From contig MEUC01000005.1 of NCBI GenBank assembly GCA_001771545.1, positions 2,379-66,378 of the forward strand: DNA of 64,000 nucleotides. Direction: 5' to 3'. The notes beneath the pieces were generated by a model. That model worked only from the letters and a program-made list of their open reading frames with translations, ran no database searches and was not told the DNA's origin. A program made the position numbers and the translations under genes. Source of the stretch: a candidate division WOR-1 bacterium RIFOXYB2_FULL_42_35. Lineage in GTDB: Bacteria > Margulisbacteria > WOR-1 > O2-12-FULL-45-9. Positions 6,693-44,093 of the stretch are shown piece by piece (within the stretch, counting starts at the first letter, position 1; each line of letters begins with the position of its first letter).

Positions 6693-9600
6693 TTACGCTT
6701 TTCGATGATAATCTTGCAACGCCTTAACATCAAAACCTTTTTTCTTCAGAGCATCAAGACCATTGACAGTGGCTCGGGCGCCAGAAATCGTCGTAATCAG
6801 CGGTACATTGTGCATCACGGCTAGTGAGCGGATTTTTGCTTCATCAATTTTAGTCTTCTTGCCCCCGGGAGTATTAATTAAAAAGGCAATCTCTCCTCTG
6901 TTAAGTAAATCAAGGATAGAGCCGGCTTCTTCATGAATTTTAGCTACGATTTTAACAGCGACCCCATTCTTCGTTAAAACCTTACCCGTTCCGGCCGTTG
7001 CTACAATACTATAACCAAGATCAACCAATCGTTTGGCAATCAAGATAATTGACCGTTTATCCTTATTTTTCACACTAACAAAAATCTGGCCGGATAAAGG
7101 GATCTTTTGACCTGCTGCTATCTGCGCCTTCATAAAAGCCCGGCCATAATCACTATCAATCCCCATAACCTCACCGGTTGATTTCATTTCCGGCCCCAAA
7201 ACAGCATCTGCACCAGGAAAACGATTAAAAGGAAAAACAGCTTCTTTAACCGCCACATGATCAATCTCAACTTCTTTTTCAATGCCTAACTGTTTCAAAG
7301 TTTTGCCAATCATCACCTTGGTAGCGATTTTGGCCCAGGGGATACCAGTTGCTTTACTGACAAAAGGAACTGTTCGGGAAGCGCGCGGGTTGACCTCTAA
7401 AACATACAAGGTGTCACCCTGAACTGCATATTGAATATTCATCAGGCCTTTAACTTTTAGCTCTTTTGCCAAGGCATAGGTTGATTTTTTTATCTCCTCG
7501 ATCATTTCTTCTGAGAGAGAAAAAGGCGGTATCGCACAAGCCGAATCGCCAGAATGAATGCCTGCTTCTTCAATATGCTCCATAATACCGCAGACAACGG
7601 TTTTTTTACCGTCAGAAACGGCATCAACATCAACCTCCAGGGCATCTTCAAGAAATTTGTCGACTAAAATTGGATGCTCAGGAGAGACATCAACTGCCCA
7701 ACCCATAAATTGCTCTAAAGACTTATCATCATAAACAATTTCCATGGCCCGACCACCAAGAACATAAGAAGGACGAACCAAAACCGGATAACCAATTCTT
7801 TTAGCCACCTTTTTGGCTTCAACATAAGATCTAGCCATGCCATTGGCCGGTTGTCTTAATTTTAATTTTTTAAGGATCCGTTGAAAAAGCTGCCGATCTT
7901 CCGCTCGATCAATACTTTTCGGCGAAGTCCCAATAATCTTGCCCCCGGCTTTTTCGATCGCAAAAGCCAAATTAAGCGGGGTCTGACCACCAAATTGCAC
8001 AATAATCCCGTCTGGTTTTTCTTTTTCAATAATATGGACAACGTCTTCTTTGGTTAAGGGTTCAAAATACAATTTATCAGAAGTATCGTAGTCAGTTGAA
8101 ACTGTTTCCGGATTGGAATTGACCATGATTGATTCGATCCCTTCTTCTCTCAAAGCAAAAGAAGCGTGGCAACAACAGTAATCAAATTCAATTCCTTGAC
8201 CAATCCGGTTCGGCCCTCCGCCCAAAATCAGCACCTTTTTCCTCTTCGACGGTTTTGATTCACACTCTGATTCATAAGTTGAATAATAATATGGGGTATA
8301 AGCGGGAAACTCGGCCGCACAAGTATCAACCAACTTATAAACAGGAAAAATCTTTTGCTCAACCCGTATTTTTTTGATCTCGTCTTCTGTCTTGCCCTGC
8401 AAATGAGCAATCTGGCAATCAGAAAAACCGAGTTGCTTCATTTCAAACAAAGACAGATCCTCCCGAGGAGCTTCAAGGATCTGCTTCATATTTTCTAAGA
8501 ACCAGGGGTCAACATGGGTTAACTTATAAAGCTCATCAATTGACATGCCCTGTTCAATCGCATGGCTAATATAAAAAATTCTCCGATCATTCGGTTTGCG
8601 TAAATTCTCAATAAGTTTATCCGGCTCAATAAAAGATTTACCATCATTACCCAAACCAAAACGCCCAACTTCTAGAGACCTTAATCCTTTTTGCAAAGCT
8701 TCTTTAAAGGTTCGACCAATTGCCATCGTCTCTCCAACAGACTTCATGGAAGTACCCAACACCGCTTCAGCATCTTTAAATTTTTCAAAAGTAAAACGCG
8801 GAATTTTTACAACACAGTAATCAATGGTTGGCTCAAAAGAAGCCGGGGTTTCTTTGGTGATATCATTCCTAATTTCATCCAACGTGTATCCAACTGATAA
8901 CTTCGCCGCGAACTTAGCAATAGGAAAACCTGTCGCTTTAGAGGCTAAGGCAGAGGAACGGGAAACACGTGGATTCATTTCAATAATAATCATGCGGCCA
9001 TCTTTAGGATTAACCGCAAATTGGATATTAGAACCGCCTGTCTCAACCCCAATCTCACGAATACAACGAATCGAAGCATCTCTCATAATTTGATACTCTT
9101 TGTCAGTTAAAGTCTGCGCTGGTGCAACAGTAATAGAATCTCCGGTATGAATACCCATAGCATCAAAGTTTTCAATCGAACAGACAATTACCACGTTGTC
9201 ATTTTTATCCCGCATTACTTCCAGCTCGAATTCTTTCCAGCCGGTTAAATCTTCCTCAATTAAAACTTCATGGGTTGGGGATAACTCTTGGCCATATTTC
9301 ACTATGCGCTCATATTCTTCTTCTGTGGTGGCAATCCCAGAGCCGGTACCTCCTAAGGTGAAACTAGGACGGATAATAGCCGGGAGTTTAACATACTCAA
9401 GCAACTCTTCAGCTTGCTTCCAAGTCTTAGCGGTACCACTGCGAGGCAAATCGATCTTGGCCTTTTTCATGGCGTCCTTAAATTGTTGTCGATCTTCCGC
9501 TTTTTTGATCGCCTTAAGGTCAGCCCCAATCATCTCCACACCAAATTTTTCTAAAACACCCATTTCTGCCACAGCAACTGCAGTATTTAAACCTGTTTGG

Positions 9601-9875
9601 CCCCCCAGTGTCGGCAGCAAAGCATCTGGCCGTTCTTTCTCAATAATTTTAGCGACAATTTCTGGGGTAACGGGTTCAATATAAGTGCGATCAGCCATTT
9701 CCGGATCAGTCATAATAGTGGCTGGATTAGAATTAACTAGAATAACTTCATAGCCCTCTTCTCTCAAAGCCTTGCAAGCCTGGGAACCAGAATAGTCAAA
9801 TTCACAAGCCTGACCGATTATAATCGGACCAGCACCAATGATCATGATTTTTTTTATGTCTGTTCGTTTAGGCAC
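6693..9875 (-). CDS. carB: Carbamoyl-phosphate synthase large subunit
   Basis: 1060 aa. Two ATP-grasp halves, [24 protein letters not shown], and a C-terminal MGS-like domain. Confidence 0.95.
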
Positions 9876-9891
9876 GGGAAACCTCCGGTTT

Positions 9892-9943
9892 CAATGACAA
9901 ATTAAAAATGTCAAATGACAAATGTATGTATGCCTTCGGCATG
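9892..9943. repeat. Repeat R1: conserved core CAATGACAAATTAAAAATGTCAAATGACAAATG plus GC hairpin ATGCC-TTC-GGCAT
   Basis: Shares a 25-nt block with R4 and a core plus covarying hairpin with R2 and R3. Lies between carB start and the four-helix-bundle gene stop. Confidence 0.7.
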
Positions 9944-9947
9944 TTAG

Positions 9948-10298
9948 TTATAGACTCCCTCTAGCTTTATTCGCAATCGAACTTAAAATCTTCATTAATT
10001 CATGTGATTCCTGGATCAAGTCATCCAAATTATCTTCTTTATAAATAATCTGCGCTTTTTTAATCAATCTCAACCAATATCTGGTCTCCCTAGCTTCTTT
10101 CCTTGAGATAATTACCTTATTTATAAAATCTCTCTTGGTCGCCGCTCCATCAGCCTCTTCCATGTTAGCCCCAATCGAAGTGCCTGACCTAACCAACTGT
10201 CTAGCTAATACATTTCCAGACTGAGTTTTCGGCAACTTGTCCGCAAACTTAAGTATGCGAACTCCAAATTCCAAGGTTCTATCTTGTATGTCCACCGC
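9948..10298 (-). CDS. Four-helix-bundle protein (23S rRNA intervening-sequence protein / Avd-like family, PF05635)
   Basis: ARQLVRSGTSIGANMEEADGAATKRDFINKVIISRKEARETRYWLRLI matches the family signature (RSAxSIxxNIAEG...KdFi...iArgS..E..ywL). The likely start is a GTG with GAGGAGG RBS 8 nt upstream (the track ORF starts at a TTG at 10322). Confidence 0.65.
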   Translation of the reverse strand, partial: AVDIQDRTLEFGVRILKFADKLPKTQSGNVLARQLVRSGTSIGANMEEADGAATKRDFINKVIISRKEARETRYWLRLIKKAQIIYKEDNLDDLIQESHELMKILSSIANKARGSL

Positions 10299-10316
10299 GA
10301 CCACCTCCTCAACCAA

Positions 10317-10366
10317 TGTCAAATTTCAAATGACAAATGTCAAATGAATGTGTGCCTCCGGCACAT
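10317..10366. repeat. Repeat R2: core GACAAATGTCAAATGAATGTGT plus GC hairpin GTGCC-TCC-GGCAC
   Basis: Same core-then-hairpin layout as R1. It forms an inverted-repeat pair with R3 across the TIR gene. Confidence 0.7.
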
Positions 10367-10369
10367 TAT

Positions 10370-11053
10370 TTACAAATCTCTTAAAACCTGATGACCTGAT
10401 CCCGTTAATCTCCATGTCAAAGAATCAGTCATTCCATTATAAAAGCCAATGCTCCCACCTTCTTCTATTAGATCATCATACATCAGTTTATTCGTCGCTA
10501 AGTTATATTCCTTCACAGATACCCCCAGAAATTTCTTCAAAACTTTCTGTGGCATTTCGGATTCATCAGCATTCACCAAAAGTTCAAGAATTTTTCTTTC
10601 ACTATCATTTAATTCCCTAGCCTCTCCCTTGTTCTGCTTTTTAATCCCTAAAGTAGCTTTAAATCTATCAACAATTTCTCTGATTACTTTTTTTGGATCT
10701 TTGCTCCTGTCCAAACATCTAAACTGCTCTCTCCCCTCAGTGCGGCCAAGAGGAGATACCCCATCCTCAACAATAGCAATAATTTGTTTTTTTGCATTAT
10801 CGGCACGTCCAATTTCTTGTTGGACGATCTGAGACTTATGCGCATGAAAAGTATACAAAACAACAAAAATATCCTTAGAATTGATATGGTTATTTAATTT
10901 GTCAGATAATTCTTTATCTCCCTCAGCATTCTCTGGTCGTTCCGCAATATATAAATCAATTCCCATACCGCAAAAGGCAGAAAACAATAAATCAATATAG
11001 ATTTGATCTTCTTCATGATTGCTATGGCTTAAAAAAGCTGTTTTATTTTTCAT
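10370..11053 (-). CDS. TIR-domain protein with C-terminal winged-helix DNA-binding domain
   Basis: N-terminal part AFLSHS...IDLYIAE...FVVLYTFHAHKSQIVQQEIGRA...IIAIVEDGVSP follows the TIR betaA-alphaA-betaB...betaC-alphaC pattern with a conserved Glu. C-terminal part SERKILELL...LGVSVKEYNLATNKLMYDDLIEEGG...WRLTGSG is wHTH-like. Start taken as MKNKTAF (the track ORF extends to an ATG at 11080 inside the R3 hairpin). Confidence 0.55.
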   Translation of the reverse strand: MKNKTAFLSHSNHEEDQIYIDLLFSAFCGMGIDLYIAERPENAEGDKELSDKLNNHINSKDIFVVLYTFHAHKSQIVQQEIGRADNAKKQIIAIVEDGVSPLGRTEGREQFRCLDRSKDPKKVIREIVDRFKATLGIKKQNKGEARELNDSERKILELLVNADESEMPQKVLKKFLGVSVKEYNLATNKLMYDDLIEEGGSIGFYNGMTDSLTWRLTGSGHQVLRDL

Positions 11054-11063
11054 ACAATAGTAC

Positions 11064-11113
11064 GTCGCGCAGCGACACATTCATTTGACATTTTTAATTT
11101 GACATTTGTCATT
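11064..11113. repeat. Repeat R3 (inverted relative to R1/R2): GC hairpin GTCGC-GCA-GCGAC plus core ACATTCATTTGACATTTTTAATTTGACATTTGTCATT
   Basis: Its 32-nt core differs from R4 at one position. It abuts the carA stop codon and overlaps the 5' end of the TIR gene. Confidence 0.7.
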
Positions 11114-12248
11114 ATTTATCCATTAACCTCGTAAATTCCTTAAATAGGTAGGTTGCGTCGTGTGGCCCTGGTCCAGCCTCCGGGTGATACTGAACAGAAA
11201 AGATCGGCAAGTCCTTATGCCGCATTCCTTCAACTGTTTGATCATTTAAATTAATATGGGTTAGTTCAACTTGTTTATCAGGGATGGAATCGATATCAAC
11301 AGCAAAACCATGATTCTGCGCCGTGATAGCAACTTTTCTGGTTTTTAAATCCATAACCGGCTGGTTGCCGCCATGATGACCAAACTTTAATTTATAAGTC
11401 TTGCCACCAAAAGCTAAGCCTAAAAGTTGATTGCCCAAACAAATACCAAAAATTGGCGCTTGGCCAATTAATTTTTTAATGTTTTTAATCGCATAGGTCA
11501 CAGCCGCAGGATCAGCCGGACCATTGGAGAGAAAAATCCCATCAGGCTTCATAGCCAGAACATCTTCGGCTGGAGTTTTAGCTGGGACAACCGTAACTCT
11601 ACAACCAACCCTCTCCAAATGATGCAAAATACTAAACTTAATCCCAAAATCATACGCCACAACATTGTATTTCAATTTCGGATTTTTACCTTCATTTGAC
11701 ATTTTTAATTTGTCATTTGTCATTCTAGCGAAGCTAGTCTCATTCCACACATATGGTTCTTTACAGGTCACAACTTTTACTAGATCAACACCCTCGACCC
11801 CAGGACAAGTCTTGGCTTTTTCAATCAAGCTCTTTTTAACAGTATCAACCGTTGAGATTACTCCCTTTAAAGCCCCTTGGGTGCGCAACTTTTTAGTTAA
11901 GGCTCGAGTATCTATCCCTGCAATGGCAATAATGCCATGTTTTTTGAGATATTCTGATAAGGTTTGAGTGCTCCGATAGTTAGAAGCAACCACACTGTTT
12001 TCTCGGACGACAAAACCTTCCACTTGTGGGATTGGTGACTCAATATCCTCTTCATTAACGCCATAATTACCAATAAGAGGATAAGTCATAGTAACAATTT
12101 GGCCTTTATAGGAAGGATCGGTGAGAATTTCTTGGTAACCAGTTAGCGAGGTATTGAAAACAATTTCTCCACTCTTTTCGGTTTCGGCCCCAAAAGACTG
12201 TCCCTGGAAAACTGTACCATCTTCAAGTGCGAGGATTGCTTTTGTCAC
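11112..12248 (-). CDS. carA: Carbamoyl-phosphate synthase small subunit (glutamine amidotransferase)
   Basis: [39 protein letters not shown] and [11 protein letters not shown] are CarA class-I GATase hallmarks. Confidence 0.95.
11690..11734. repeat. Repeat R4: in-frame copy of the R-family core inside the carA inter-domain linker (encodes [12 protein letters not shown])
   Basis: CATTTGACATTTTTAATTTGTCATTTGTCATT followed by CTAGC-GAA-GCTAG; it matches R3 at 31 of 32 positions. Confidence 0.65.
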
Positions 12249-38348: not shown

Positions 38349-40542
38349 TGATTGTTTGTGGGACTCCTGTTTTGATTGATTCAATAATGGCAAAGGTAGT
38401 TAAAGTTGTATAAATATGGTCTTTAAGAGGCACAGCTTCCCGACTACTCTTAACCGCAGCAAAAAAAGCTTCAAACTCTCCTTCGTAACCACGATCAAGG
38501 TTAAAGGATTTTTTCTTTTGACCCCTACCATCTTTAGCAAAAAATAATGATTTAAAGTTATCAATTACACAAACTGACTTGCCGGAAAACACTTCAATTC
38601 TTTCTCTGGGAAGAAGTTTATCGCCTTGAGAAGCGTAAAGGATTGTCGCAATCGAACCATTGTGCATTTTAAGCGTAATAACTAAATTGTCTTCCCCTTT
38701 TTCTGTGGCAGCCTGAGCAAAAACACTTTCGGGCAATGAGCCGGATAAAGCTTGAACCAAATCAACAAAGTGACAAACCTCGCCAACAACCCTGCCCCCA
38801 CCCTCCGCTGCATCGTGAACCCAACTTTCAGCCGGGACAAACCCAGCATTAACTCGACAATTGATAACCAGGTTTGAACCAGAACCGAGCAATTCTTTGG
38901 CCTTCAAGGTCAAGGGAGCAAAACGACGGTTAAAACCTACCATCAGGAGCCGTGGATCGGGGTTCGCCGTGCCTGCCGGCAGGCAGGTGGTTCGTGAATA
39001 GATATCGATTATTGATTTAAGTTCTGAATCATTCATGCACAAAGGTTTTTCTACAAAGACGTGCTTACCAGCCTTAAGGGAATCAATCACCATCTGGGCA
39101 TGAAGATTATGCCTAGTTGCAATTAAAATCGTATTAATATTTGGATCTTTTAATAATTCCTGATAGTCGGCCACACAATACTCAAACCCATATTTTTTAC
39201 CTGTGTGACGACCCTTAAAACCTTCCGCATCTGCAAGCCCAACCAATTTAATATTTTTGAACTTTTTTAGAATGGGGAGCATGCTAGTGTTGGCGTGGAG
39301 GCCTGCGCCGATCAGCCCTATTTTGACCTGCTCCAACTGTCTGCTGTCTGCTGTCTGCTTTCTACTATCTAATAAGCTTATCTTCTTCGACCCAGGACCC
39401 ATGACCCCAGACCCAAGACCATCCCCATATTCTAACAAAACCCCAAGATACGGCACTCCCCCCTTTAAAATCATCTCATACCCGGCTAGAGCTTCTGCCA
39501 ACTTAAAGCGATGGCTAATAAGCTTTTCTAGTTCAACCTTTCCTTCAGCTACCAAATCAAGGAAACAAGCCATATTGCGTTGAGTGGTCCAACGAACATA
39601 AGGCAAAGGATAATCTTGCCCTTTATTTTCATAAAGGGGATCAAATTTACCGGGGCCGGTGGCGCGAGAAACAATGACACTTAATTCTTTTTTGAAGAAG
39701 TCTTGTCTGGGCACATCCAAAGAAACCATACCACAAGCAACAATACGGCCCTTATCCCGGGAAATTTCCGCAGCCATTTCAATCGGTTTATTATCTTGAG
39801 AGCCTGCCATAATAATAACGGCATCAGCCCCAACTCCGCCAGTAAAGTCAGCTACAACTTGATTAATATCATCTCTACCAATTAAGGCAACTTGATCAAC
39901 TCCAAATTCCCTGGCCATTTTTAGTTTGGCCTCGGAGATATCAACCCCAATAACTTTACAGCCAAAGGCTTTAAGCATCTGAACCGTTAACTGTCCCAAC
40001 AGCCCTAACCCAAGAACAACGACATTTTCACCAAAAGTTAAGTTGGCAACCCGAATAGCATTCAAAGCAATCGAACCTAAACCGACAAACGAGGCTTCTT
40101 CAAAAGAAACCCCTTGAGGAATTTTGACCAGCATATTTTTTGGCACATAACTTAGTTCGGAATGAGTGGCAAACCCATCGCCAAAACAGGCGATTCTATC
40201 GCCAACTTTGACACCATAAATCCCCTCTCCAACCTCTCTAACCAGACCGGCTGAACTGTAGCCAAGAGTAACAGGAGTATCTAAACGGCTCATGACAGCT
40301 TTATAAGTATCTAATAAACCGTCAACTTTAATTTTGTTGATAACCTGTTTAACCAGGTCAGGACGAGCCAGGACTTTTCCCAAATAACCTTTTTGAGCCA
40401 GACTGATCATTAGCTTCTCCGTGCCAACGCTGACAAGGGAATTTTTTGTTTCCAACAAAACCCCACCAGAACGCAAAAGAGGATCCGGAACTTCCACTAA
40501 CTGAAGCTCCCCTGATTTATAGTTTTGGATTATCTGTTTCAT
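38326..40542 (-). CDS. Bifunctional oxidoreductase: N-terminal Zn-dependent alcohol dehydrogenase (MDR) domain fused to C-terminal Gfo/Idh/MocA domain
   Basis: N-terminal MDR fold (GDRIACFGDG..., VVLGLGLLGQL). C-terminal IGLIGAGLHAN...EKPLC Gfo/Idh/MocA Rossmann domain. They are joined by a low-complexity repeat-encoded linker. Confidence 0.7.
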   Translation of the reverse strand: MKQIIQNYKSGELQLVEVPDPLLRSGGVLLETKNSLVSVGTEKLMISLAQKGYLGKVLARPDLVKQVINKIKVDGLLDTYKAVMSRLDTPVTLGYSSAGLVREVGEGIYGVKVGDRIACFGDGFATHSELSYVPKNMLVKIPQGVSFEEASFVGLGSIALNAIRVANLTFGENVVVLGLGLLGQLTVQMLKAFGCKVIGVDISEAKLKMAREFGVDQVALIGRDDINQVVADFTGGVGADAVIIMAGSQDNKPIEMAAEISRDKGRIVACGMVSLDVPRQDFFKKELSVIVSRATGPGKFDPLYENKGQDYPLPYVRWTTQRNMACFLDLVAEGKVELEKLISHRFKLAEALAGYEMILKGGVPYLGVLLEYGDGLGSGVMGPGSKKISLLDSRKQTADSRQLEQVKIGLIGAGLHANTSMLPILKKFKNIKLVGLADAEGFKGRHTGKKYGFEYCVADYQELLKDPNINTILIATRHNLHAQMVIDSLKAGKHVFVEKPLCMNDSELKSIIDIYSRTTCLPAGTANPDPRLLMVGFNRRFAPLTLKAKELLGSGSNLVINCRVNAGFVPAESWVHDAAEGGGRVVGEVCHFVDLVQALSGSLPESVFAQAATEKGEDNLVITLKMHNGSIATILYASQGDKLLPRERIEVFSGKSVCVIDNFKSLFFAKDGRGQKKKSFNLDRGYEGEFEAFFAAVKSSREAVPLKDHIYTTLTTFAIIESIKTGVPQTINASTYFI

Positions 40543-41380
40543 GTTTTTGACAATACTGATCTATTATAGCAGAATAATTCTCCAAAAAGTTATTGATGCT
40601 GTTAGTATCCTCAATAAAATTAACCAAATCGAGAAAAAGATTGTTTTTTTTGATTTTTCCGGCCTTGAGATGAATCTCTTTTAGCATTTGCGACCATGAC
40701 ATCCCGCTATATTTAGTATCGGCAAAGAGGAGCTTCAAGCTTTTGGCGCCAGGTATAATGTCCTTACCCATATACCAAACCAGGTCATACATATCGCGGC
40801 CTTTAAAATCAATTTCCTTGGCTTTACCTTTGTAAAACAAACGGGTCAGAAAAGCGTGAACTTTGCCGGCCATTAAATCCGCCAATGAATATCTTTTTAG
40901 AAAATAAGTCCTGCCCCCCTTTTCCACTAAGGCAGTTTCCAACACAGCCTCCGGCAAGTTAACCTGGGCAATTTCTACTTTTAGCAAAAGTGTAAATGAT
41001 TGTTGAAAATCAAGGCCCAGTTGCTTTAAGAAAGGGAACTTGAGATAAATTTTATTATTTTGGCCCTTAAGCGCAAAATCAATCTCCTGGTATTTAAGGG
41101 TTTGCCGAAACATATTTTTAAGATCCCCGGCTATCTTTTGATGGTCTAATTTTACCGCACAATCAAAATCAAGGTCTTCGGACAAACGCGGCAGGTTAAA
41201 GCAAAACCGCAAGCATGTCCCGCCGGTAAAAATCAGCTTATGGTTAAGCTCTTTATTGCCATAGATATATTCTAAAACGATATTCTGGAGATGCTCCTTA
41301 ATCAAATTGATTATATAACCGGTTCTCACCTTTTTCTGCTTAGCTTCACTAACAATAGCTTTTAATTGCTCAAAAAGCAT
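40517..41380 (-). CDS. Nucleotidyltransferase AbiEii/AbiGii toxin family protein (DUF1814)
   Basis: LIFTGGTCLRFCFNLPRLSEDLDFD matches the AbiEii motif (KGGTAL...RfSeDiDf). Confidence 0.65.
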   Translation of the reverse strand: MLFEQLKAIVSEAKQKKVRTGYIINLIKEHLQNIVLEYIYGNKELNHKLIFTGGTCLRFCFNLPRLSEDLDFDCAVKLDHQKIAGDLKNMFRQTLKYQEIDFALKGQNNKIYLKFPFLKQLGLDFQQSFTLLLKVEIAQVNLPEAVLETALVEKGGRTYFLKRYSLADLMAGKVHAFLTRLFYKGKAKEIDFKGRDMYDLVWYMGKDIIPGAKSLKLLFADTKYSGMSWSQMLKEIHLKAGKIKKNNLFLDLVNFIEDTNSINNFLENYSAIIDQYCQKHETDNPKL

Positions 41381-42005
41381 GCTTGCTCCTCAAGGCCTGA
41401 TAAATCCGACGCATTTTTTCACTTCGGGCAATAGCCAAATAATCTTCAAATTCCCGCCAATCGGCCGAGGAAAAACCCTCCAAATTTAATCTTAGTTCGG
41501 CCACGGTTTTTGCGTTGGCATGTTTAATGGTTCGTTTGGCAAAATAAAGGTAATCAAATAAAGCCTTACTCTTGGAAGCGATATCATAGTTTTTGCCTTC
41601 AAATTGCGCCCGGCTAAAACCGCAAAACAACTGTCGCTTGATTTTGGCATAACTGAAATTAGCAATTTTAGAGCTGTAGTTTTTGGTTGCCCTGCCGGTA
41701 ATTGAAGCGACACCAAAAACAGCTTCGGATAAAACACCGTATCGGGCCAAAACGGTCTCTTTGCTGACATAAGAAGGTTGGTCCAAGAGAGAAGCAAGAT
41801 AGTTGAGATACTCATCTTTGTTGGCACAATTTTGCCAATATTCTTCCGGCACATAAAAGCCTCTCTTGAGCTTAATCAGTTTACCGGCTTTTAACCAGTT
41901 TTTGACGTTCTGGTCAAAAGAAGCCGGTTTAATATCAGGGAATAAAAGGGCAAGATTATCTTTTCTCACGTAAGGCAGTTTTATTATTTGCTCTGAAATG
42001 CTCAT
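41370..42005 (-). CDS. AbiEi-family antitoxin-like protein (type IV TA)
   Basis: N-terminal wHTH ending KAGKLIKLKRGFYV (AbiEi L.R.G.Y motif). Encoded immediately upstream of AbiEii with an overlapping stop/start. Confidence 0.55.
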   Translation of the reverse strand: MSISEQIIKLPYVRKDNLALLFPDIKPASFDQNVKNWLKAGKLIKLKRGFYVPEEYWQNCANKDEYLNYLASLLDQPSYVSKETVLARYGVLSEAVFGVASITGRATKNYSSKIANFSYAKIKRQLFCGFSRAQFEGKNYDIASKSKALFDYLYFAKRTIKHANAKTVAELRLNLEGFSSADWREFEDYLAIARSEKMRRIYQALRSKHAF

Positions 42006-42755: not shown

Positions 42756-43223
42756 TTAAAGTTTTGACAAAAAGTTAATAAAAGCCTTAAGCTGAAGGTC
42801 AACCTCTTTATAAAGAGCCGGTAAATTCTCGGCTAAATTCTGGCAGCGCTGCCATTTTAATTCAAAACCATAAATATGTCTAAAAAGGTGTCTAAAGCTT
42901 AAATATTCGTTCAAGTTTTCCCCTAATTCAACTGATAAAACTGCGGGCCGGCGGTTAGGCACATTAGCCAACATGCGCCGCAAAATTTGAGTATGCCAGC
43001 CCTCGCCCTCCGGCAGGCCACCATCAACGGCATAGGCAATCCTTTCAAAGATCTTTTCCAGTCCGGTATAAAAGTCATGCAAAATACTGCCTGCCGCCCT
43101 AATTAGGGTGGTATCCGGCTGATCCTTGATGCTTTTTAGCGCCAATTGCATTTCATCAACCAAGCGGCCAAGGTTCTTATTTTCTAAACTGATATCTGTT
43201 ATCAAGCCGGCAAATTTAGCCAT
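42756..43223 (-). CDS. HEPN-fold toxin-like protein (HepT / nucleotidyltransferase-substrate-binding HI0074-like)
   Basis: R-x4-H-x-Y motif (FRHLFRHIYGF). Overlaps the upstream MNT gene by 8 nt. Confidence 0.5.
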   Translation of the reverse strand: MAKFAGLITDISLENKNLGRLVDEMQLALKSIKDQPDTTLIRAAGSILHDFYTGLEKIFERIAYAVDGGLPEGEGWHTQILRRMLANVPNRRPAVLSVELGENLNEYLSFRHLFRHIYGFELKWQRCQNLAENLPALYKEVDLQLKAFINFLSKL

Positions 43224-43581
43224 AAATTAATTGCCCTTTTTTTTGGATTAAATCTTTTAACTTAGGGGCCGCGTCTTCCAAGGGAACCAGATCAACACTT
43301 ACTTTACCGGCAAAAAGCCGGGATATCTTACTTAAAGCAGAAATATATTCTTGGGGTTGTATCCCCTCTACAGCCAAATCAAGGTCAGAATGTTTATGGA
43401 AAAGCTCACCATCAATTATTGATCCGAACAAAAAAACCTTTTTAGCGCCAAATTGCCTGCCCAGCATCTGCGCTGCTTTGGCAGCAGAAAGTTTTAGGGA
43501 TTTAATCAGTAACTGTTTAGCTTGATATTCCTTTTCAAATTGTTTTTTCCAGAATTTCTGGTAATTTCTTAGACTTGCCAT
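43216..43581 (-). CDS. Minimal nucleotidyltransferase (MntA-like antitoxin)
   Basis: LFGSIIDGELFHKHSDLDLAV matches the GS-x9-13-DxD MNT motif. Confidence 0.65.
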   Translation of the reverse strand: MASLRNYQKFWKKQFEKEYQAKQLLIKSLKLSAAKAAQMLGRQFGAKKVFLFGSIIDGELFHKHSDLDLAVEGIQPQEYISALSKISRLFAGKVSVDLVPLEDAAPKLKDLIQKKGQLIYG

Positions 43582-43763: not shown

Positions 43764-44093
43764 TCAAACCAGGCGGATACCTTTTTGGATAATTTGCCTG
43801 ACCAGGCTGACTTCTTTTTTCTTTTTAGCAAATTCCTGTGGCGTATAACATAAAAAGTCAATATCAGGCAATTCTTTATCTGACCAGGTTTTTAGCTGTT
43901 TGGCCACTTCCGCCCCTCTTTTGATAAACCTGTATTTATCAAACTCCTTGGAAACAAGTGCAATATCAAGATCGCTATTTTCATTGGGCTGGCCATAAGC
44001 GTATGAACCCCACAACCAAATTTCCTGCGGCTTAAAAATTTTTTTTAATTGTTCCAAATATCTGGCCAAAAAAGTTTCCACAGTTATATTCAT
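43764..44093 (-). CDS. Orphan minimal nucleotidyltransferase (MNT) translationally coupled to the DUF362 gene
   Basis: LWGSYAYGQPNENSDLDIALVS MNT motif. Its ATG overlaps the DUF362 stop (AAATGA). No HEPN partner follows it, only fragment C. Confidence 0.6.
   Translation of the reverse strand: MNITVETFLARYLEQLKKIFKPQEIWLWGSYAYGQPNENSDLDIALVSKEFDKYRFIKRGAEVAKQLKTWSDKELPDIDFLCYTPQEFAKKKKEVSLVRQIIQKGIRLV

Follow-up and report, generated by a model that had tools for sequence, protein, structure and literature searches.

In the TIR effectors SPARTA, Cat1 and TIR-STING, assembly driven by a sensor turns the effector on. The biology of a second group, the S23p/intervening sequence (IVS) elements, has been obscure since the 1990s. 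S23p open reading frames (ORFs) reside in IVSs of the 23S rRNA, which have terminal inverted repeats and are excised by RNase III (PMC4990558). Here we describe a gene that relates to both groups: a TIR gene lying in an S23p/IVS-related cassette between carA and carB, on a 64,000-nucleotide stretch (contig MEUC01000005.1; hereafter the window, to which all coordinates refer unless a locus is named) of a Saganbacteria (candidate division WOR-1) genome. Its product joins a TIR domain to an orphan C-terminal module. On the evidence given below, we consider the case for and against to be about evenly balanced that this protein is a catalytically competent-looking TIR NAD+-processing enzyme, carried as horizontally acquired cargo of the cassette and acting as a conflict factor.

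TIR domain and C-terminal module

The gene and the parts of its product are the following:
10370..11053, minus strand: gene of the TIR and orphan C-terminal domain protein, 227 aa from MKNKTAF, stop codon included (ORF list, NCBI and JGI gene calls, homologue N-termini)
10649..11053, minus strand: TIR domain, aa 1-135 (Pfam ThsB_TIR, PADLOC ThsB models, invariant residues, PDB profile matches)
10616-10648, minus strand: short basic linker between the TIR and the orphan domain, aa 136-146
10373..10615, minus strand: orphan C-terminal domain, aa 147-227, ~81 aa (no homologue found, low-pLDDT models, marginal PADLOC match)

Judged by its profile matches, the N-terminal part (aa 1-135) is a bona fide TIR domain, as a previous sequence-only reading of this DNA had proposed for the N-terminal ~140 aa. 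The Pfam model ThsB_TIR (PF08937) matches with 37.7 bits (E = 2.8e-09; curated cutoff 21.2), TIR_2 (PF13676) with 26.3 bits, slightly under its cutoff of 28, and ten PADLOC ThsB models match as well, the ThsB1 models at 2.6e-09 and 4.8e-09. A HMMER scan of 1.84 billion representatives (E <= 1e-3) gave 218 matches, of which those listed are all confined to residues ~6-150. A subfamily profile, built from the alignment of the window protein with 31 relatives and run against the PDB, retrieved AbTir (3.3e-09) and Cat1 (9.4e-09), followed by SARM1, plant TIRs and the TIR-APAZ protein of SPARTA. No assignment to a non-TIR flavodoxin-like fold arose from the profile searches, the NDT-like CMP hydrolases scoring far worse with the subfamily profile (about 7e-4).

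Only three columns of the 32-sequence alignment are invariant (Ser9, Ser74 and Glu80), and the window protein retains all the invariant and nearly invariant residues of the subfamily. Glu80 (227-aa numbering; codon 10814-10816) is the Glu of SQIVQQEIG, which had been singled out earlier as a conserved residue that could support NAD+ cleavage; it sits in a catalytic-type Glu motif, S-x-(W)-V-x-x-E. In the profile-versus-PDB alignment Glu80 ('VnqEIG' in the profile) stands opposite the Glu of AbTir 'WTNYELD', which we take to be the catalytic Glu of AbTir. By alignment, Glu80 is confirmed as a conserved residue of active-site type.

The minus-strand ORF runs without interruption over 10370-11080 and has 236 aa when counted from its first ATG (11080), which falls inside the heptad/hairpin repeat R3 described below; a second ATG lies downstream at 11053. 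The ambiguity of the start codon is real, and it is resolved in favour of MKNKTAF: the ATG at 11053 is predicted to be the better start, because the homologue N-termini lie 2-5 residues ahead of the FLSHS strand in the alignment with the relatives, the NCBI and JGI gene calls both give the 227-aa form, and the extra N-terminal peptide of the 236-aa form (MCRCATYYC) has a counterpart in no relative. An identical copy of the protein is deposited as the hypothetical protein A2291_02855 of the candidate division WOR-1 (Saganbacteria) bacterium RIFOXYB2_FULL_42_35, and the protein is known only from assemblies of one Rifle aquifer site/population.

ThsB models being the best matches in both Pfam and PADLOC, and ThsB proteins being known to join the TIR domain with variable extra parts, the protein could be a Thoeris-like ThsB, that is, a TIR sensor whose cyclic ADP-ribose-type product signals to a ThsA-like effector with its gene at another place in the genome. 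Thoeris genes are usually adjacent to one another, however, and the immediate neighbours here are carA, a four-helix-bundle (4HB) gene and carB. In a PADLOC search of 50 window ORFs (E <= 1e-5), the 25 families listed include AbiE, PDC and ThsB and lack ThsA, and the TIR gene came as single-gene cargo. We regard this explanation as unlikely. Membership of the locus itself in Thoeris was rejected: a ThsB-type TIR is present, but no adjacent ThsA (SIR2-SLOG or Macro/TM) accompanies it.

Most relatives are TIR proteins of ~160 aa with a hydrophobic transmembrane (TM) helix at the C-terminal end, and the closest ones, P0003, P0004 and P0033 (44-48% identity in the TIR domain), have CxxC...CxxC zinc-ribbon-like tails. 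Because the relatives carry TM or zinc-ribbon tails, the plan of the subfamily, as far as the alignments tell, is a TIR domain to which a small, interchangeable module is joined at the C-terminus. The module of the window protein was found in no other protein, either among 5.8 billion clusters or in the listed matches of the scan of 1.84 billion representatives, which bears out the view that the layout is non-standard. P0033, the closest TIR relative, adjoins hsdR/hsdM of a type I restriction system, which gives modest support to an association with defence islands; the neighbourhoods of two other TIR relatives were uninformative, and no viral relative of the TIR protein was found. At the P0033 locus (L216 2662-6941) the TIR gene, which lies beside hsdR/hsdM, is flanked by a 77-aa ORF and an unannotated protein of 1094 aa; this may be an uncharacterised three-gene TIR defence system.

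The C-terminal ~81 aa appear, from database searches, to be a true orphan, a one-of-a-kind module. The domain has no match in Pfam, NCBIfam and PHROGs at E values up to 10, among PDB sequences, in the word-indexed 5.8-billion database, in six-frame translations of phages and plasmids (tblastn) or among ~10,000 ORFs of the fetched loci (phmmer --max), and no listed match of the 1.84-billion scan extends into it. A BLASTP comparison with E. coli MarR ended at E = 0.37 on an irrelevant segment. The one computed hint of a winged helix comes from the PADLOC model PRTase_III-A, with a marginal match that is not significant (E = 0.006 with the full-length protein, 0.03 with the domain alone) and that covers positions ~259-351 of the 393 of the model, its C-terminal third. 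The region matched is the fused C-terminal winged-helix part of the type III-A retron PRTases (Mestre et al. 2020, PMC7736814).

By eye, the sequence would pass as MarR-like (L-x3-E-x2-IL-x2-L ... LG-V-S ... DLIE ... W-x-LT-x-G). Two single-sequence AlphaFold runs were both of low confidence, with a mean pLDDT of 39.4 for the full-length protein and a pLDDT of 52.9 for the C-terminal domain alone; the two models disagree, the full-length run having an H-H-H-E-E order that the domain-only run does not reproduce, and Foldseek found no match of the domain in the PDB (best E = 1.9). Of the architecture proposed earlier, a TIR domain fused to a winged helix-turn-helix (wHTH), the joining of a TIR to a separate C-terminal module stands, and the wHTH assignment is left with no significant family or structure match, the AlphaFold models speaking neither for nor against it. 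The domain is acidic (isoelectric point 4.7, net charge -5), which would argue against a generic DNA-binding surface, without excluding the binding of DNA. A winged-helix fold is plausible but unproven, with roughly equal weight on either side, and sequence-specific DNA binding by the domain is rather improbable.

The cassette at the carA/carB site

The TIR gene is part of an insert between carA and carB, co-directional with both and laid out as repeat-TIR-repeat-4HB-repeat. Its features and flanks, in order along the coding strand, are:
11112..12248, minus strand: carA, flanking host gene (ORF list, gene calls)
11058..11114, minus strand: repeat R3, the inverted repeat on the left, immediately ahead of the TIR gene; heptads AATGWCA/AATTAAA, then the hairpin GTCGCTGCGCGAC on the coding strand (nhmmer)
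10313..10371, plus strand: repeat R2, the inverted repeat on the right of the TIR cargo, with the TIR stop codon on one side and the 4HB start on the other; hairpin GTGCCTCCGGCAC (pair I1, nhmmer)
9948..10295, minus strand: four-helix-bundle/23S rRNA-intervening-sequence protein (S23p-type) gene (Pfam, TIGR02436, JGI call of 115 aa, homologue starts)
9891..9948, plus strand: repeat R1, second right-hand inverted repeat, immediately ahead of the ribosome-binding site of carB; hairpin ATGCCTTCGGCAT (nhmmer)
6693..9875, minus strand: carB, flanking host gene (ORF list, gene calls)

Comparison with related genomes shows the carA/carB site in three states: empty, with the 4HB gene only, and with TIR plus 4HB. 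A Saganbacteria metagenome-assembled genome (L184), with a carA 79% identical to that of the window, has an empty repeat pair only, and L115 (carA 73%, carB 82.5% identical) has repeat-4HB-repeat. The five-part layout recurs at another site, between purQ and purL of L092, as repeat-cargo-repeat-4HB-repeat with an unrelated cargo. The TIR gene is cargo of a palindromic heptad and hairpin cassette. Its GC content is 35.2% (29.4% at third codon positions) versus 39.7% and 41.6% for the window; because of this lower GC, of the three-state site and of the restriction of the protein to one Rifle aquifer population, the gene is, on compositional and comparative grounds, foreign, horizontally acquired cargo. 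Within the window the ORF is intact, and it is identical across five independent assemblies.

The 4HB gene matches Pfam 23S_rRNA_IVP with 74.9 bits and TIGR02436 with 98.5 bits. Its longest form spans 9948-10322, and its most likely start is the GTG at 10295 (MDIQDRTLEF), with GAGGAGG ahead. It belongs to the element and is no partner specific to the TIR protein, because it occurs alone within repeats, in L115 and elsewhere, or paired with unrelated small membrane proteins; on the same ground, the two-gene cassette named in the earlier reading is not a dedicated system of the two genes.

In each R repeat, four or five heptads (AATGWCA or AATTAAA) precede GAAKGTRT, and a short GC hairpin comes last. 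R2 is 85% complementary to R3 over 46 nt, and the predicted R3:R2 RNA duplex has -48.7 kcal/mol versus -15.9 +/- 3.4 for shuffles; the corresponding values for R3:R1 are -38.1 and -13.4 +/- 3.5 kcal/mol. The minimum-free-energy fold of the whole insert is closed by a 29-bp R3:R1 stem. An Rfam scan of window 9700-11900 gave no match to the repeats. Relative to the empty site (L184 5360-5415), the hairpin sequences of the carA and carB sides (window 9925-9945 and 11064-11076) are swapped, as though a palindromic element had flipped or been replaced.

Two other kinds of mobile or defence context were considered for the locus and rejected. It has no integrase, and its repeats are without attC features (the latter by inspection only), which sets it apart from an integron cassette. 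As for a retron effector, neither a reverse transcriptase nor a non-coding RNA is adjacent, the flanks being carA and carB and the stretch 9700-11900 having no Rfam match.

Heptad and hairpin elements in other genomes

Elements like R1-R3 were collected by scans of metagenome and genome collections, then by nhmmer; of the matches to an initial, too permissive metagenome pattern, about three quarters arose by chance. The result is a set of 176 heptad and hairpin elements in 128 fetched loci from several phyla. Their hosts are chiefly Saganbacteria and Margulisiibacteriota; further hosts are Patescibacteria, Desulfobacterota (including the isolate Desulfosarcina cetonica), Omnitrophota, Nitrospiraceae and others. 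The heptads are conserved nearly base for base, and the hairpin stems vary in sequence and keep their position, hairpins at or below -6 kcal/mol being present in 41% of the distinct elements versus 8% of shuffles. In the fetched loci the elements are always inside housekeeping operons.

'Empty' convergent pairs are the most frequent form (22 cases). At least 7 cargo cassettes are present among the fetched loci. Pairs enclose the 4HB gene in L122, L115, L149, L205 and L047, and small membrane proteins in L092, in L164 and L209, in L101 and L029, in L100 and in L143. The cargo is co-directional with the flanking genes in every case where the flanks are visible. An rRNA was detected in none of 18 loci that bear elements, there is no Rfam family for the repeats, a literature search found the heptad sequence in no relevant context, and a scan of viral sequences with the element pattern gave one chance match.

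Some elements lie within coding sequences or depart from the common form. An in-frame heptad array within carA (11687-11725) is translated in the inter-domain linker of CarA, and a whole element including its hairpin lies in-frame within PurL (L092 5905-5961) and is translated as ...NRAIGAHIHLTFDIGNLSLRKD; these in-frame copies in carA and purL resemble the in-frame palindromic elements of Rickettsia. Five Desulfobacteraceae/Desulfosarcina loci (L159, L175, L178, L183 and L149) have heptads followed by a conserved tail, GTATTCTGCCGATTTTT, and no GC hairpin. The isolate Desulfosarcina cetonica JCM 12296 has heptad arrays on both sides of a 4HB gene.

The distribution of the elements bears on the proposal that the TIR protein is a cassette-specific DNA-binding regulator, in which a C-terminal wHTH would bind the heptads of R1-R3 and the TIR-like domain would act as a ligand sensor or as an NADase triggered by R-core DNA. 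Heptad arrays do stand on both sides of the TIR gene, the C-terminal sequence pattern is wHTH-like with its marginal match to the wHTH part of PRTase_III-A, and the retron type II effectors offer a parallel in which an NDT-like domain precedes a C-terminal winged helix (PMC7736814). However, none of the 128 loci with these elements encodes the TIR protein, its C-terminal domain or any other TIR, which makes the R-core an unlikely ligand or trigger, and the C-terminal domain has no homologue, an acidic isoelectric point and no fold support from AlphaFold or Foldseek. We consider such a regulator very unlikely.

We advance, tentatively and with the balance leaning somewhat against it, a broader proposal for the repeats: they may form a hitherto undescribed family of palindromic, IVS-like elements that spans several phyla and is the counterpart, in mRNA operons, of the S23p-carrying IVSs of the 23S rRNA. 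Such elements would spread as empty pairs, insert between housekeeping genes or in-frame within them, and capture small cargo. The TIR gene would be the first recognisable conflict-system cargo of the family, expressed by operon read-through and freed when RNase III cuts the stem formed by the repeats.

Proposed function and comparison with known systems

The protein most likely functions, in our analysis, as a conflict NADase, for defence or addiction, that was acquired horizontally. We read it as part of a conflict system because P0033 adjoins hsdR/hsdM and because the best profiles are ThsB models and TIR NADases. Enzymatic activity, a defence role, processing of the RNA and any binding of DNA are what we infer here, and the mechanism may be pictured as follows. 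The cassette would be transcribed by read-through of the carAB operon, and the inverted repeats would form long RNA stems around the insert, which RNase III could process by analogy with IVS elements; such processing would let the host operon tolerate the insert. The C-terminal module might sense a ligand or a partner, or localise the protein, and thereby control the self-association of the TIR domain. Self-association would turn on the cleavage or cyclisation of NAD+, and the outcome would be anti-phage defence or an addiction phenotype.

Several observations weigh against this proposal. The protein is a singleton in the databases searched, with no conserved orthologues, and neither the two AlphaFold models nor Foldseek gave a confident fold for its C-terminal domain. 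No Shine-Dalgarno sequence lies upstream of either TIR start, whereas the 4HB gene (GAGGAGG) and carB (GGAGG) have one. The other cassette cargos have no family match in Pfam and PADLOC, and because they match no known defence family, it is not established that cassettes of this kind carry defence genes. Finally, the allele P0002 has an in-frame 99-nt deletion by which 33 core TIR residues (aa 87-119) are lost, in addition to D46G. The deletion, which would be expected to take out the core of the TIR fold, ends at two CAAAAAAA runs inside a 31-nt direct repeat (window 10668-10797). Possible causes are selection against a toxic gene, a relaxation of selection and an artefact of assembly; no contigs encoding P0002 are on record.

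Three of these observations, namely the singleton status, the missing Shine-Dalgarno sequence of the TIR gene and the deletion allele without the TIR core, would equally suit an inert or decaying hitch-hiker that was caught by the cassette and contributes nothing to the host. Against it, the ORF is intact and the same in all five assemblies mentioned above, and every invariant and nearly invariant position of the subfamily is kept, Glu80 included. A hitch-hiker of this kind is unlikely, and the conflict NADase carried as cassette cargo is the reading that we retain.

By itself the protein represents one further TIR architecture, and its orphan module could reveal a new switch for TIR NADases. 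Its context is weightier: a palindromic, S23p/IVS-related cassette has brought an immune-type TIR gene into the interior of a biosynthetic operon that is essential. The cassette is a more novel object than the TIR protein it carries, and the three site states in related genomes make its gain and loss, the role of the repeats and the role of the 4HB gene directly testable.

Elsewhere in the window an AbiEi (41370-42005)/AbiEii (40517-41380) pair lies on the minus strand, a toxin-antitoxin or abortive-infection pair, and near it two small nucleotidyltransferase-like ORFs (43216-43581 and 43764-44093) match PADLOC PDC-S09.

Among the described systems, ThsB and stand-alone TIR NADases such as AbTir share with the window protein the match to the ThsB_TIR profile, the Ser...Glu motif and the size of the TIR core. 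Unlike them, it has neither an adjacent ThsA nor the coiled-coil N-terminal part of the AbTir type, and it has a unique C-terminal domain and lies in a repeat cassette in a housekeeping operon. The TIR proteins with a TM anchor or zinc ribbon (P0003, P0004 and P0033) are alike in the FLSHSNH motif and in the succession of TIR, short linker and small C-terminal module; their C-terminal modules are unrelated, however, and P0033 stands beside a type I restriction-modification system and not in a repeat cassette.

The retron effectors with NDT or PRTase and wHTH domains (PMC7736814) likewise place a nucleotide-processing domain before a small, putative nucleic-acid-binding domain, but the N-terminal domain of the window protein is a TIR, not an NDT or PRTase, and no reverse transcriptase or non-coding RNA adjoins its gene. 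With SPARTA TIR-APAZ, Cat1 CARF-TIR, TIR-STING and TIR-SAVED it would have in common the control of TIR oligomerisation and NADase activity by a sensor, as proposed here, and several of these proteins are matched by the TIR profile. Their sensors are unrelated to its C-terminal module, and their partner genes (pAgo, CRISPR, cyclases) are absent at the window locus.

The S23p IVSs of Coxiella and Leptospira (PMC4990558) resemble the cassette in their S23p-type ORF, in inverted repeats with long stems, in a GC content lower than that of the host and in a sporadic, horizontal-looking distribution. In contrast to these IVSs, the element of the window resides in an mRNA operon (carAB) and not in 23S rRNA, its repeats are heptad arrays with small GC hairpins, and it carries a TIR gene as an extra cargo.

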